The translations under genes were made by a program, and so were the position numbers. Shown here one piece after another: positions 7,487 through 21,395 of a stretch of 26,099 nucleotides of DNA. Positions within the stretch are counted from its first letter, which is position 1. Each line of letters starts with the position of its first letter. Location: contig NW_021835634.1 of the NCBI RefSeq assembly GCF_006345805.1, positions 1-26,099 of the forward strand. The letters are read 5' to 3'. The notes below the pieces were generated by a model. The model saw only the letters and a program-made list of their open reading frames with translations. It did not search any database and was not told the DNA's origin. The stretch comes from Octopus sinensis (Eukaryota).

Positions 7487-7728
7487 GAGGCACATGGATT
7501 AGTGGTTGAGGTGTTGGACTCATGATCATCATATTGTGGTTTCAATTCCTGGACCAAGCAACACATGTTTTGGGCAAAATGCTTCATTTCACTTTGCCCT
7601 GGTGCACTAAGCTGGCGAAAATGAGTAATTCTGTGACTGACCGATGTCCCATCCAGGTGGAAAATATATATACCATGAAACTGAAAAACCAGCCCTTATG
7701 AATCAGTATAACTTAAGAAAGTTCTTTT
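7487..7728 (+). mobile_element. tRNA-derived SINE (family B)
   Basis: A-box-like tggattagtgg, B-box-like ggtttcaattcc; body homologous to 7731/8405-8632 and rc of 15135-15378. Confidence 0.8.
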
Positions 7729-7830
7729 GTGGAAGCACGTGGCTTAGTGGTTAGTGTGTTGGACTCCCGATAGTGAGCATTATTTACATTATTTACATTT
7801 GACTGATATTTGCCCTCATCTTGTTTGTTG

Positions 7831-7875
7831 TTAACATGTTTCGGCTGATATACTCTCCAGCCTTCATCAGGTGTC
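7831..7875 (-). ncRNA. Hammerhead motif, left arm (3-nt deletion at cleavage site/stem I)
   Basis: rc reads gacac CTGATGA a ggctg gagagtatat cagcc GAAAC atgttaa. Confidence 0.55.
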
Positions 7876-7926
7876 TGGGGAAATTTTGAACCTGGGTTCT
7901 CATTCCCAAGGTATTTTTCGTTGTTA

Positions 7927-7963
<37 letters not shown>

Positions 7964-7982
7964 GTTGTTGTTGTTATCATCA

Positions 7983-8028
<46 letters not shown>

Positions 8029-8116
8029 TACTACTACTCAGGTCACTGCTTGGAATCGAACTCAGAATCTTGGGTTTAGTAGCCCGCGCTCTTAACCACT
8101 ACATCATATGCCTGTG

Positions 8117-8190
8117 GGCATATAGCATGGTGGTTAAGAGCACTGGCTAAGAACCCCAAGATTCTGAATTCAATTCCACGCTGTAACCTG
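8117..8190 (+). promoter_or_regulatory. tRNA-like Pol III internal promoter head (inverted copy at 8038-8112)
   Basis: A-box-like TAGCATGGTGG 8123-33 (left arm rc GATGTAGTGG); B-box-like GAATTCAATTCC (left arm rc GAGTTCGATTCC 8063-8052); tRNA-like spacing. Confidence 0.7.
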
Positions 8191-8277
8191 AACAACAATA
8201 ATAACAATAATAATAATAATGATGATCACATCGAAACATACCTTAGGAATGAGAACCCAGGTTCGAAATTTCCCCAA

Positions 8278-8323
8278 GACACCTGATGAAGGCTGGAGGG
8301 TATATCAGCCGAAACATTGTGTT
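8278..8323 (+). ncRNA. Minimal type I hammerhead motif (PLE-type), right arm
   Basis: Stem I gacac 8278-82 / gtgtt 8319-23; CTGATGA 8283-89 plus extra A; stem II ggctg 8291-95 / cagcc 8306-10; GAAAC 8311-15; ATT triplet (GAAACGTT expected). Confidence 0.7.
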
Positions 8324-8632
8324 AACAACAAACAAGATGAGGACAAATATCCGTTAAATGTAAATAATGTACATTATTCCTCATCTCTTAAATATAGAAC
8401 TGTATCATGATAGTGAGATTATGGTTTCGATTCCTGGACTGGGCGATGCATTGTGCTCTTGAGCAAAACACCTCATTTCACATTGCTCCAGTCCACTCAG
8501 GTGGGAAAAAGTGAGTAATCCTGCAATGGACTAGCATCCCATCCAGGTGAGGAATGTATATACTACTGAAACCAGTAAACCAGCCCTTATGAGTCGGTGT
8601 GACTGAAAGAGGTAACTTTACTTTTTTACCTT

Positions 8633-9262
8633 ACCTGAGCTTTGTGGTGCATAAGTTCCCCTCCTGGATGGGACATTGATACACTGCAGGATTATTCATT
8701 TTTGTTGGCTTAATGCAATATGAAAAGAAGTGCTTTGTTCAAAAGCACAACACACTCTCAGGTCCAAGAATCAAAACCACAATTTTATTATCAAGAATGC
8801 AACACCAAAGTCGGCGAGCTGGCAGAAATGTTAGTACACCAGGCAAAATGCTTAGCAGAATTTCATCTGTTTTTACGTTCTGAGTTCAAATTCCACCAAG
8901 GTCGACTTTGTCTTTCATCCTTTCGGGGTCGATAAATTAAGTACCAGTTATGCACTGGGGTTGACATAATCGACTTAATCCGTTTGTCTGTCCTTGTTTG
9001 TCCTCTCTGTGTTTAGCCCCTTGTGGGTAGTAAAGAAATAGGTATTTCATCTGTCTTTATGTTCTGAGTTCAAATTCCGCTGAGGTCGACTTTGCCTTTC
9101 ATCCTTTCGGGGTCGATTAAATAAGTACCAGTTACGCACTGGGGTCAATATAATCGATTTAATCCATTTGTCTGTCCTTGTTTGTCCCCTCTGTGTTTAG
9201 CCCCTTGTGGGCAGTAAAGAGATAAAAATGCAACACCCTTACCACTATGCCACATGTCTCCA
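8633..9262 (-). mobile_element. Family B SINE interrupted by family A dimer
   Basis: 8640-8806 and 9238-9262 are colinear with 15160-15378. Confidence 0.75.
8807..9226 (+). mobile_element. tRNA-derived SINE family A, dimeric body
   Basis: One head plus two ~184-bp units (gagttcaaattcc...gtcgactttgcctttcatcctttcggggtcgat...aaagaaata). TSD aatgcaacacc 8796-8806 / 9227-37. Confidence 0.9.
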
Positions 9263-9756
9263 TGTATGTCCATAATGCCAGACTGGATCCGAACTTTGAT
9301 CTTTTCTTTCTAAATGAAAGGTAGCTGAAGGCTTTGGACTACATAACTTACGTATAATCCTAGTCTGGTATTATAAATCTCTCCAGGAATAGGATAAACT
9401 AGTGCCAATCGAAGTTTAAGCTGGTTGGCATGCAGTGTCCTTTTTTCACTCTTTCCCACTTTCATTGGTTTTAGTTGCAGAACCGCAGACATAATGGAGA
9501 ACTTTCTAGAAGTGTTTCGGTAATCAAATCAATCTTGATTATTATGTTTTTATATAGATATACATACATACATACATACATACATACATACATACATACA
9601 TACATACACACACACAGACACACACATACACCCCCCACACACACACACATATATATATATATATGTCACTGAAGAGAATAATGGCATTAATCACCACCAG
9701 TATTACTAGAAATGAGAGTCAAAACAACTAAATAGCCCACAAAAGCACTATCTTAG

Positions 9757-9789
<33 letters not shown>

Positions 9790-10137
9790 TAATACAAACA
9801 AACAAATAAATAATTAACTAAACAAAAACAGAACTCTTAATTATAAAAATAAAAAAAGAAATTTTTACAAATCATTAAAAAATAATTTCTACAAATCATA
9901 CCAATAAAATGGTAATAGTAAAGTGACGAATAATTTGGGTAATAAAATGATAATAAAATAAATTTTAAAATATCATTAAAAGAAAAAATCTGAAATAAAA
10001 TAAAGAAAATCTGATTAATAATTCATAAAAATATAAATCACAACAATAAAAATCAAAAGAAAGAAAAAAGAAAAATATTAAAATTTATAAAAGAAGCAAT
10101 AAATCATAACAATAAAACATGAAATAAAAACCATCAA

Positions 10138-10165
10138 AATAATAATAATAATGATGATGATGATG

Positions 10166-10226
<61 letters not shown>

Positions 10227-10260
10227 TGATAATAATAATAATAATAATGATAATAATAAT
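10138..10260. repeat. (AAT)n/(GAT)n microsatellite
   Basis: Directly visible; further (AAT)n at 10345-10390 and 10942-11011. Confidence 0.97.
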
Positions 10261-10344
10261 AACTATGAGTTTCTTTGCCCTAGGAGTCGGGAAGACACTC
10301 GGCAAGAAATGGAAGCAAATTTGAAAGAAGAAGAAAAAAAGAAA

Positions 10345-10390
<46 letters not shown>
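10261..10390 (+). mobile_element. Possible R4/Dong-type 3' UTR stub with (AAT)n tail
   Basis: ccctaggagtcgggaagacactcggc... sits inside (AAT)n and resembles remembered Dong/R4 3' ends; not verified. Confidence 0.4.
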
Positions 10391-10393
<3 letters not shown>

Positions 10394-10941
10394 GCCCTGA
10401 TGCAGTACCAGACAGTCGCTCTCATGGCTTCTGATCATAACTGGTTAGAAGTGTTATCATGTACATTATTTTGTCTTAGTATAGAATATGGGCTACAGCA
10501 AATATTCTGTTCAATACCACAGATTTGCTTCTCAGTTGTTTGACCATAACCAGTTGAGCATGTCCCTTAGTGGCTGACGATATGTGCATCTCTGACCACG
10601 AGCAGAAGTAGTTGAGGAGCATCAAACCCATGTGTTGAAAGGAATTCTTGGAGGTTTGGATAATTCACCATTAGAAACATGGGTGGTTCGTTCAACATCC
10701 TTAAACAATCTTTATTCAGGGACCTTTTGAGCAGGATGGGCTACTCAACCAGAAGAAAATTTTAACTGGGCCCCACCTGCAATTGTTAATCATGATATGA
10801 GATCACCATGTCATGCACATATGGTTATGATGTATGTACCTGGTGTACCCTTATCAGACGAGTAGTCATGATGGGTATACTGGGCTTTTGTATTTTACTC
10901 CAGTGTTACTTTGATGGCATGCACTGCTCTCTCACTCATTC
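10391..10941. mobile_element. Unclassified ~550-bp element embedded in (AAT)n
   Basis: Complex sequence with sharp (AAT)n boundaries on both sides and no ORF. Confidence 0.55.
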
Positions 10942-11010
<69 letters not shown>

Positions 11011-11013
<3 letters not shown>

Positions 11014-11530
11014 TTTTCTTTATTGGCCACAAGGGCTGAACACAAAACAAATAAGGATAGTTCAACAAAAGGGACAAGTGGGATTTGGCACGACATCATA
11101 TATAAAATAGATAACAATAACAGTTAACAATAAATTAAATAATAAAGATTCCCCAAATTGGAGGTTGTCCTCACAAAAACAGCTGAGGAACTCCATACAT
11201 CCTGGTCACCTTGACCACCAGGGACACATCAGCAGCTGCATCTCTCCTCAACTCTTCCGGTTTATGGGTGAATGTTCAAAGTTGGCCCATTCACACGGAC
11301 CATCCTCACCACATTTCTCCGTCTTTTAACAAAAAGATTGGTGAGTGGGGGCAGTACTTCCATCTCCACCCTCACTTTCCTTTTCAAGAAGAACTGGAAA
11401 ATGTCGATGAGGACTTGGCTGAAGAGGATGGTATCTGTCATCAGACCTTTCAACCTTGTCCACCACATTACCTTCAAAAACACAAACCATATTAAAAGGA
11501 AACTCAGTACTGTGAAAAACATGACAAAGT
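11011..11530 (-). mobile_element. L1/Tx1-like LINE 3' end (copy 2) with (TAT)n tail
   Basis: VMWWTRLKGLMTDTILFSQVLIDIFQFFLKRKVRV...RMVRVNGPTLNIHP*; tail ...cagcccttgtggccAATAAAgaaaa. Confidence 0.72.
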
Positions 11531-11557: not shown

Positions 11558-12870
11558 AGGACCATCAATGGTTGGCAGCATCTCAACTTAAATTAAAAAC
11601 AGAGGGTATCATTATTGCAGCTCAAGATCATTATTTGACCGCCAGAAAATGCTAAGCAGTTAAGGCAGTGAGCTGGCAGAAACATTAGCATGCCGGGCGA
11701 AATTCTTTTCAGTATTTTGTCTGCCACTATGTTCTGAGTTCAAATTCCGCCGAGGTCGACTTTGCCTTTCATCATTTCAGGGTCGATTAAATAAGTACCA
11801 GTTAAGCACTAGAGTCGATATAATCGATTTAATCCGTTTGTCTGTCCTTGTTCATTCCCTCTGTGTATAGCCCCTTCTGGGTAGTAAAGAAATAGGTATT
11901 TTGTCTGCCGCTACGTTCTGAGTTCAAATTCTGCCGAGGTCGACTTTGCCTTTCATCCTTTCGGGGTCGATTAAATAAGTACCAGTTACGCACTGGAGTC
12001 GATATAATCGACTTAATTCATTTGTCTGTCTTTGATCATCCCCTCTGTGTGTAGCCCCTTCTGGGTAGTAACGAAATAGGTATTTTATCTGCCGCTACGT
12101 TCTGAGTTCAAATTCTGCCGAGGTCGACTTTGCCTTTCATCATTTCAGGGTCGATTAAATAAGTACCAGTTACGAACTGGGGTCGATATAATCGACTTAA
12201 TCCATTTGTCTGTCCTTGTTTGTCCTCTCTGTGTGTAACCCGTTGTGGGCAATAAAGAAATAAGAAACTGCTAAGCAAACATCTATAAAAATGGTGTTGA
12301 TTCTGATGCCACTTTTGTGGTACAGCCAGGGAAACAACTGACCACCTCATTTCTGGATGCTCTATGTTAGTCTCAAATGAATATATTAATCCCCATGATA
12401 GACTTGGTCAGTGTTTGTACTGGAGCAGATGCTGTAAGTTTGGACTTTCTTATAAGAACTGACAGGAACATAAGCAGAAGAAAATAAGATATCACTGTTC
12501 TTTAGGAATTTAATATTCAAATTGGAGAAACTATTCAGGACAATAGACCAGACATTGTGGTAAAAATCACATTCATAAACATGTCTGCTCATAGATATAT
12601 CAATCCTAGCTGACTGTGATATTCCTGTTAAAACATTTGGTAAGTAAATATAAGGCCCTGAAATAGAGGTCTGTTCCTGTGAACATTGGAGGTTAAGGAA
12701 CAATACTAAATCATATACTTTAAACACTATGACCCCAAGGTATCAAAATTACAAAAAATTGTCCACATGGGCACTGCCCTCTCAGACACTTGTGTGCTAA
12801 GGAAACCAGGTGACTCGCCTTGCAAGTCCAAAGACCTAAAACTTCACCAACAAAAAATAAAAAGCAAAAG
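11558..12870 (+). pseudogene. R4/Dong-clade non-LTR retrotransposon, C-terminal remnant with CCHC zinc knuckle and REL endonuclease
   Basis: WLAASQLKLKTEGIIIAAQD (11569+); CHFCGTARETTDHLISGC (12307-60); EYINPHD; NRPDIVVK (12542+); CLLIDISI; LQKIVHMGTA (12749+). Contains stops and frameshifts and is split by a SINE. Confidence 0.88.
11659..12262 (+). mobile_element. SINE family A, trimeric body
   Basis: Units start at 11711, 11895 and 12079 (period 184). TSD agaaa(a/c)tgctaagca 11644-58 / 12263-77. Confidence 0.92.
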
Positions 12871-15134: not shown

Positions 15135-15378
15135 GGCCCTTTTAAAGCCTAGCCAGGCTCATGGGCCTGGTTTCCTGGTTTCCATGGCGTGTGTGTTCCC
15201 CAGTTGGATGGGACGCCAGTCCATCGCAGCGTTACTCATTTTTGCCAGCTGAGTGGACTGGAGCAACGCGAAATGAAGTGGTTTGCTCAAGAACCCAACG
15301 CGTCGCCCGGTCCAGGAATCGAAACCACAATCTTACGATCATGATGCTGACACCCTAACCACTAAACCACGCATCTCT
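15135..15378 (-). mobile_element. Family B SINE, well-preserved copy
   Basis: rc head gcgtggtttagtggttagggtg...ggtttcgattcctggaccgggcg with A and B boxes. Confidence 0.85.
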
Positions 15379-15516
15379 GGCATGTACTGAATGGTTTTGC
15401 TGCCAAGTGCTGCAAGACAGGGACTAGAATTAGTGTTATGAAGACTGAGACATTGGATTCTCAAAAGGAGCTATCAATGTTTCACTGATGATCTGCACAT
15501 CAGTGAAACATTGATG

Positions 15517-15676
15517 ACGGCAGTGGAGTGGTTGGCATCAGGAAAGACATCCAGTTGTAGAAATCAAGCCAAAGCTGACTGGGGCATTGTCCAGCTCTCT
15601 GGCCAACCAGTTCCAGTTAAATCATCTTACCCGTGCCAGCTTGGAAAACAATAGACATTAAATGGTGATGATGATT
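15517..15676 (+). mobile_element. Family D 3' fragment (degenerate)
   Basis: gagtggttggcatcaggaaagacatccagttgtagaaa...cccgtgccagcttggaaaa. Confidence 0.75.
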
Positions 15677-20574: not shown

Positions 20575-21395
20575 GTATTTGCCCCTTTACTCCTTTTCCT
20601 TCTCCGACAAAGAGCTATGTAGAGATCGAAGACAGATCTTTCCCTGCATAGTAACTAGGGTAAAAGAGGCTGTGTGGTAGACCTGTCTGAAAGGTCTGAA
20701 GACAGGCACCTTCCTATCTGGTCAAGCTCTCATCAACTCATTCAAATATCATTTGAAGAGGAAGGTGAGGGTCAAGAAGAAGGTACTGCTTTCTATTGTG
20801 TCTACCAAAAGGTGGATAAGAGTGGCAAGAAGGCAGTGGGCTGGCAGAAACATTAGCACGCCAGGTGAAATGCTTAGCAGTATTTCATTTGTCACTACGT
20901 TCTGAGTTCAAATTCCGCCGAGGTCGACTTTGCCTTTCAGCTTTCAGGGGTCGATAAATTAAGTACCAGTTATGCACTGGGGTCGATGTTTGTCCCCTCT
21001 ATGTTTAGCCCGTTGTGGACAATAAAGAAATAAGAAATAAGAGTGGCAAGACTGGTGAGACTGAATGGATCTACTCTGAGTATGCTTTCCTAAGCAGGAG
21101 GAAAGAAACTGGATGAGGGCACTTTCCCATGCCTTAGAGATGGCAGAGTAATCTGGGACTTTTTGTGTGAGGTTTTTACCTTGAATGACCCTAAGTGGAC
21201 TAACCTGCTTCTGGGGACTCAATTTATTAATTATTAATTTTTCTAATTTCTATTTAAATGCAACCTTTTGTTAAATCCTTCAATGTTGTAGTGTGTCCCC
21301 TCAATCGATGTAAACTCCCACTTATTCTGGGATTTGTATCTTGCCCTTTCGTATTGTCCTCCATGTCTTTAGCCTTTTTGCCCAATAAAGGAAAT
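20575..21395 (+). mobile_element. L1/Tx1-like LINE 3' end (copy 3), split by SINE A
   Basis: VKEAVW*TCLKGLKTGTFLSGQALINSFKYHLKRKVRV...KRWIRVAR continues after the SINE as LVRLNGSTLSMLS* (stop 21091-93); tail ...gcccAATAAAggaaat then (CAT)n. Confidence 0.8.
20831..21036 (+). mobile_element. SINE family A monomer (internal deletion)
   Basis: Perfect 15-bp TSD ataagagtggcaaga 20816-30 / 21037-51. Confidence 0.92.

Follow-up and report, generated by a model that had tools for sequence, protein, structure and literature searches.

A palindromic, SINE-like insertion in Octopus sinensis is probably an inverted pair of truncated terminal repeats from a Penelope-like element with a tRNA-like head

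The window analysed here (the whole 26,099-nt stretch of Octopus sinensis contig NW_021835634.1) carries at 7778-8404 an insertion of 627 nt that folds as a single hairpin of -334.5 kcal/mol (z -37 against 20 shuffles), with its axis at 8114/8115. The insertion interrupts a host tRNA-type SINE between its A and B boxes and is bordered by a TSD; the related SINE copies at 7487-7716 and 15164-15382 are intact. In reverse-complement alignment, the two arms of the hairpin are 88.8% alike over the 187 nt of their hammerhead part and 76.8% alike over the 224 nt of head and tract. The right-arm A box carries three changes and its B box two, and the left arm includes a native mini-hairpin that is known upstream of the head in ORF-bearing copies. 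A tail of about 33 nt is present on the right arm only. The palindrome, the TSD with its split SINE and the one-sided extra nucleotides had all been described in a first-pass annotation of this DNA, and our analysis bears them out. The features of the locus are:

7732-7777, plus strand: 5' part of the host tRNA-type SINE, with its A box at 7740-7750 (by likeness to the intact copies 7487-7716 and 15164-15382).
7765-7777, plus strand: left copy of the TSD, 13 bp (11/13 match, 9 exact; the family's TSD mode is 12-13 bp).
7778-8119, minus strand: left arm, a pLTR copy running from the inner (tail-less) RT start site to the putative RNA 5' end at 8119 (alignment).
7833-7875, minus strand: left-arm minimal type I hammerhead, without 3 nt at the cleavage site and likely dead (alignment).
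7925-8037, minus strand: left-arm (AAT)n-type tract, expanded, which separates the head from the start of the ORF (sequence and alignment).
8038-8113, minus strand: left-arm tRNA-like head, A box 8106-8096 and intact B box 8061-8051 (5 differences in 75 nt from the family majority).
8110-8119, no strand: palindrome centre, formed by a mini inverted repeat of 4 bp that lies immediately upstream of the tRNA-like +1; a hot spot of fold-back and joining (genome-wide exact-match counts).
8116-8404, plus strand: right arm, a tailed pLTR copy whose end lies at the outer start site (alignment).
8116-8192, plus strand: right-arm tRNA-like head, with a degenerate A box at 8123-8133 and B box at 8168-8178 (13 differences in 77 nt from the family majority).
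8193-8227, plus strand: (AAT)n-type tract, right arm (sequence).
8249-8404, plus strand: first 52 codons of a Penelope ORF; the frame starts with the ATG at 8249 and stays open across hammerhead and tail (reading frame and homology).
8278-8323, plus strand: right-arm minimal type I hammerhead, with its core from 8283, a predicted cut after 8318 and the 15.2/16.2 palindrome broken (motif).
8372-8404, plus strand: the Penelope 'tail' of 30-40 nt, which separates the two start sites (copies of the family have their 3' ends in two sharp peaks).
8405-8417, plus strand: right copy of the TSD (match to 7765-7777).
8405-8607, plus strand: 3' part of the host SINE, with its B box at about 8424-8434 (alignment with intact relatives).

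The host SINE belongs to a tRNA-type family with copies in the window at 7487-7716, 7732-8607, 8656-8796 (minus strand) and 15164-15382 (minus strand), which are 67-81% alike. A second abundant repeat lies at 8808-9291, 11662-12329 and 20823-21039 of the window, with copies about 184 nt apart, and gave more than 100 local matches in the loci that we fetched.

The reading of the arms as carriers of minimal type I hammerheads holds up in part. By motif, the family majority has an extra nucleotide lying between position 9 and position 10.1, a G10.1-C11.1 pair and a palindromic 15.2-16.2, the three features described for the minimal type I hammerheads of PLEs (PMC4209133), and the core is intact in 89 of 305 arms of the family. 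Both copies in the window are nevertheless damaged, the right by a change in the palindromic 15.2/16.2 pair and the left by the loss of three nucleotides at the cleavage site. Rfam searches showed no hammerhead match, either among the 150 listed of 173 matches in one search or among all 10 in another, and no tRNA match among the matches listed, and ARAGORN called no tRNA; the hammerhead and tRNA-like identities are for this reason based on motif and alignment. A further hammerhead-like core motif, at 15470-15530 of the window, falls within a perfect short hairpin and is probably due to chance or unrelated. The first-pass proposal that self-cleavage defines the ends of the RNA was not supported, as copy 3' ends lie about 50 and 80 nt past the cleavage site and 5' ends lie at the head. 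Likewise, units released by a hammerhead cut, as in Sm-alpha-type repeats and retrozymes, were not found in a family whose ends fall at the head and at two sites past the cut, and it is likely that copy ends are not set by the hammerhead.

What the arms represent became clear from copies that continue into an open reading frame. A degraded ORF lies upstream of the head in two of the first loci. Of 30 loci chosen by its protein (one of the 30 being the query's own locus), 24 have the head after the ORF in the same orientation, and 27 have at least a piece of the unit there. The head begins about 30 nt past the stop codon, which gives a unit made up, in this order, of the head, the (AAT)n tract, the ATG, a minimal hammerhead, two sites of 3' ends, the RT/endonuclease ORF with its stop, some 30 nt and the head once more. 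Pfam finds RVT_1 in the ORF at loci L045 (E 1.6e-8) and L297 (E 3.2e-10), and no family match at L295. The ORF has 1,665 homologues, the full-length ones of 820-850 aa, some with a Pfam GIY-YIG domain; PF01541 is present in P0064, P0075 and P0094, at about 41-42% identity, and a matching motif is visible in the translations; the family's own degraded ORF copies give no Pfam GIY-YIG match. A PDB sequence search gave no match. The 52-codon right-arm frame in the window, which opens at the 8249 ATG, aligns with P0003, a homologue of 847 aa, at residues 15-34 with 11 of 20 residues identical (E 4e-5), and the tail continues into the ORF at L303, L062, L120 and L345. Copy 3' ends form two sharp peaks about 30 nt apart. 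The arms are thus almost certainly the pLTR of a Penelope-like element. Mobilisation by a PLE, as first proposed, is upheld. By contrast, the 'unique 50 bp', the hammerhead and the tail, which had been taken for separate parts, are all the N-terminus of the ORF. From the domain order and the likeness to PAc, a Penelope of Anolis carolinensis that we return to below, we infer that the family belongs to the Penelope/Poseidon clade. Judged by its sequence, it behaves as an EN+ Penelope-like element; Pfam matches GIY-YIG in homologues only, and the family has the other features that we tested for.

The family is abundant. Genome G000 (2.72 Gb) holds 8,077 exact matches of a hammerhead 19-mer and 3,719 of a head 20-mer, which, scaled by rates of 35/113 and 15/50, respectively, correspond to roughly 26,000 hammerhead arms and 12,000 heads. 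The median non-CpG divergence is 4%. A head-to-head pair is found in 47 of 87 hammerhead-anchored loci (90 fetched from the first 100 matches on C1, less three that overlapped), and two near-complete heads, as in the window, in five of these 87; tandems are present as a minority arrangement. The joint recurrence of head and hammerhead that the first-pass annotation predicted is seen in 85 of 97 head-anchored arms. The 12 without a downstream hammerhead part enter unrelated sequence, and no SINE family consisting of the head alone was seen. When control PLE families were sought in the fetched loci, this family alone was found. Other repeats have often inserted into the (AAT)n tract of the pLTR (L033, L034, L037, L039, L101 and others), and some loci are near-identical duplicates (L106/L107, L110/L111, and L303 with L346-L348), due either to segmental duplication or to redundancy in the assembly.

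Palindromes with a one-sided tail and a TSD, the form anticipated from the window, recur throughout. In a pool of 120 head-to-head pairs, which includes 30 loci chosen with a tail-containing query, 90 combine a short (tail-less) arm with a tailed one, 6 are short/short, 4 are tail/tail and 20 are of other kinds. A TSD, with a mode of 12-13 bp, accompanies 73 of 88 short+tail pairings (several of which come from single complex loci), against 5.6 with the ends shuffled. By these counts, the usual insertion form of the family is a short+tail inverted pair with a TSD of 10-14 bp. As is seen for PLEs, there are 5'-truncated tandem and inverted insertions with a 30-40-bp tail at one end, and inverted tailed insertions are a general PLE trait (PMC8557442). 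A fold-back DNA transposon of the MITE type, or an assembly artefact, could in principle present long inverted arms and a TSD, yet the ends are asymmetric, the internal junctions vary, copies are truncated at the 5' side, the two arms differ by 11-23%, and the sequence occurs in sequencing runs of five organism labels. Together with the direct continuity into an RT ORF, which effectively refutes it, this makes such an origin hardly credible.

How the two arms come together can be read from their variants. Arms of one locus share variants at 0.0059 per site, about four times the 0.0015 of random pairs; 13 of 78 arm pairs are discordant at one hammerhead site, and alleles are independent of arm class (short versus tailed). 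These three observations suggest that each palindrome is made at insertion from two cDNAs, usually of one source, and the discordant pairs show that a single RNA is not in every case the origin of both arms. Arms extending as far as the 5' landmark are for the most part short (20 versus 12), whereas truncated arms are mostly tailed (18 versus 5; P 0.005). At the palindrome centre there are 476 exact fold-backs and 463 exact read-throughs genome-wide. Of 20 fold-back loci, just 2 have both heads nearly complete, a result consistent with a transient snap-back and subsequent joining. We reject replication of the palindrome as a dimer, since alleles are not tied to arm class and junctions vary. 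Fold-back copying of a single cDNA fails as the sole mechanism, as it cannot place the tail on the other arm and as so few fold-back loci (2 of 20) have both heads nearly complete. Near the inner start site, at 8361-8370 and 7778-7800 of the window, a 9-nt (three-codon) unit occurs in one to three copies across many loci. Slippage at initiation was considered as its origin and rejected; one or two units are equally frequent in tailed and short arms, and the unit is accordingly an in-frame polymorphism of the family.

These observations can be accommodated in a model in which the RNA would start about 13 nt before the A box and continue into the ORF. The PLE protein would cut its target in staggered fashion, and each target 3' end would prime RT internally at one of the two start sites, as has been demonstrated in vitro for PAc (PMC11167929). 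A cDNA primed in the 5' pLTR would run off the RNA 5' end after about 300 nt and might often snap back on the 4-bp mini-hairpin at that end, before this first cDNA is joined by microhomology to a second. Short copies are, on this model, likely to be run-off products of internally primed RT, and the SINE-like palindromes dead-end by-products that arise anew at each insertion with no self-propagating SINE involved.

The first-pass annotation had instead proposed a non-autonomous, Penelope-mobilised Pol III 'ribozyme SINE' with a PLE pLTR as its tail; such an element would be independent and would replicate from short copies with the Penelope protein. It is true that short copies far outnumber ORF copies, with 72 of the 97 head-anchored arms ending at -8 or later, that the pLTR has no T4 run, so that short copies with intact boxes could be transcribed, and that Schistosoma has SINE-like elements combining Pol III transcription and a hammerhead (PMC6765202). 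Several findings nevertheless render an independent SINE improbable. The head belongs to the pLTR of the autonomous element, and short and long copies share alleles and age: divergence is 0.034 in short and 0.039 in long arms (P 0.22), and no allele difference is seen at four polymorphic sites. A separate non-autonomous lineage, as expected of a tRNA-derived SINE, was not found, the short arms having no private alleles. Junctions vary by copy, and a pair of near-complete heads is limited to 5 of 87 loci. Furthermore, PAc requires RNA downstream of its start sites, namely the first 172 nt of its ORF (PMC11167929), which short copies would miss if this family is alike. The reading that we favour, and consider probable, is that the window element is an inverted pair of 5'-truncated pLTR copies, in which the tRNA-like head likely acts as a Pol III promoter that sets the RNA 5' end.

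As in tRNA-derived SINEs, the head is tRNA-related and has both A and B boxes. It aligns to the genome's own tRNAs at z 2.8-6.8 relative to shuffles, with the best likeness to Arg(TCT), Ala(TGC), Cys and Lys among the six amino-acid types sampled and no single source tRNA standing out. Thus the boxes and the tRNA likeness of the first-pass heads stand, although ARAGORN calls no tRNA, and the head is on sequence grounds a plausible candidate Pol III promoter. The 5' ends of copies bear on its function. Numbering from the tRNA-like +1 as 0, with the A box beginning at +7, the 97 head-anchored arms (the first 100 matches on C1 with duplicates removed) have 28 ends in +27..+2, 44 in +1..-8, 6 in -9..-69 and 19 at -70 or beyond. 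The rates per nucleotide are 0.012, 0.086 and 0.005 for the first three intervals (P 2e-20), and 16 of 38 arms that have no inverted partner also end within +1..-8. The peak, at -7/-6, precedes the A box by 13 nt, a distance typical of SINE start sites. This pile-up just before the head suggests a Pol III start site, and on balance we think that the head works as one.

An alternative with the same Penelope origin is that the head is a passenger left by an old SINE insertion, and that the 5' cluster reflects a Pol II start, RNA processing or release of RT at the mini-hairpin. The promoter of the D. virilis Penelope is internal and resembles TATA-less LINE promoters (PMC2377424), and in the octopus family the 5' cluster falls at the mini inverted repeat. 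Conservation of the A and B boxes is no better than that of the sequence between them, a pattern that is to be expected of dead copies. A B-box allele difference between short and long arms, noticed post hoc (10/92 versus 22/60), failed replication in 40 new loci (2/16 versus 4/19, in the opposite direction) and was discarded. Finally, nothing discrete is seen in RNA-seq: in three runs under a related species label, depth is equal in both directions, starts and ends do not pile up and the profile tracks copy number. Each run contains 7,715-11,147 family reads, of which 66-70% extend into unlike flanks; these reads are passive read-through, and libraries of this type do not bear on whether a short Pol III RNA exists. 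The family accounts for about 0.07-0.09% of records across the three runs, in both directions (L302:2500-3640). Against a passenger head, however, the ends peak 5' of the hairpin and not 3' of it, where an RT stop should lie; clean fold-backs account for only 6 of the 44 clustered arms; the spacing to the A box fits the start geometry of SINEs; and no TSD is visible around the head. We regard the passenger reading as rather unlikely, and return to the head as a start site.

If transcription does begin there, a further question is how far it extends. At three loci (L161, L283 and L285), the copy end at -6/-7 directly abuts a stretch of ORF that lies 185-339 nt beyond the tail, so that the templates of these copies, or RNAs bound with them, ran into the ORF. 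The ORF 5' fragments concerned are L161:1531-1700, L283:771-945 and L285:837-957; two of the three loci share an ORF break about 335-339 nt past the tail, which might reflect an RNA end that recurs, a circular RNA or a tandem derivative that has undergone deletion. On the sense strand, no T4 run is common to copies (22 scattered runs in 72 segments), and the roughly 2.7 kb have no ancestral T4 terminator. L303 has no T4 run where 3.2 are expected (P 0.018), an effect that is weaker in four other copies (to P 0.45), the five copies being non-independent; G4 runs are scarce as well. PLE reading frames hold 11 T4 runs against 19 expected, compared with 143 against 136 in other frames. Pol III read-through of the sense strand would be allowed. 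The upstream pLTR of L303 is truncated, and none of the copies inspected combined full length with an intact upstream head. That an autonomous protein-coding element is transcribed end to end by Pol III from a captured tRNA-derived promoter, its run-off cDNAs forming the SINE-like family with no SINE stage in between, is a tentative possibility.

Much of this layout is known from other PLEs. Like the octopus family, PAc (Poseidon_Ac) of Anolis carolinensis has an ORF for RT and a C-terminal endonuclease (a probable one in the octopus family), and its hammerhead overlaps the ORF start, the ORF beginning inside the hammerhead; two internal start sites bound a 30-40-nt tail (PMC11167929), and partial tandems and inverted 5'-truncated copies occur (PMC11167929; PMC8557442). 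The octopus family differs from PAc as described in its tRNA-like A/B-box head within the pLTR and in the sharp cluster of 5' ends before it (PMC11167929). The Sm-alpha and Sj-alpha repeats of Schistosoma are likewise high-copy and have a hammerhead after a Pol III-type promoter, and are described as non-coding, often tandem and freed by self-cleavage (PMC6765202); the octopus unit instead comprises the pLTR of an autonomous element together with the start of its ORF, and copies are mostly arranged head to head, with ends away from the cleavage site. In the TRIMp3 elements (Cassandra, Helenus, Ajax), a Pol III promoter derived from a small RNA lies in the terminal repeat, possibly by way of a SINE insertion, and Helenus has a tRNA-like sequence there; these are non-autonomous LTR elements with PBS/PPT and TSDs of 4-5 bp (PMC10886601), in contrast to an autonomous PLE with TSDs of about 12-13 bp. 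Metazoan non-LTR retrozymes share type I hammerhead repeats and a proposed PLE mobilisation, and are non-coding and spread via circRNA (PMC7761336), whereas the present family is coding-derived and mainly inverted.

What appears from our comparisons to be new is the tRNA-like A/B-box head inside the pLTR of an autonomous element. No description of a tRNA-derived head in an autonomous PLE was found in searches of open-access literature, and the family may already be catalogued, for instance in Repbase, Dfam or subscription papers; the accessible text of a 2026 octopus repeat annotation leaves hammerheads unmentioned (PMC13282606). For the questions of how PLEs are transcribed and how their inverted, tailed insertions form (PMC8557442; PMC11167929), thousands of copies with a fixed 5' landmark make priming on two strands, run-off and joining countable from sequence. 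Annotation pipelines may class such pLTRs as SINEs or MITEs. The palindromes may form long dsRNA within host pre-mRNA, where the inverted arms could be substrates for A-to-I editing. If the interpretation is true, a tRNA-derived promoter in an autonomous terminal repeat would blur the distinction between a SINE and its partner, and would suggest a route toward ribozyme SINEs of the Sm-alpha kind.
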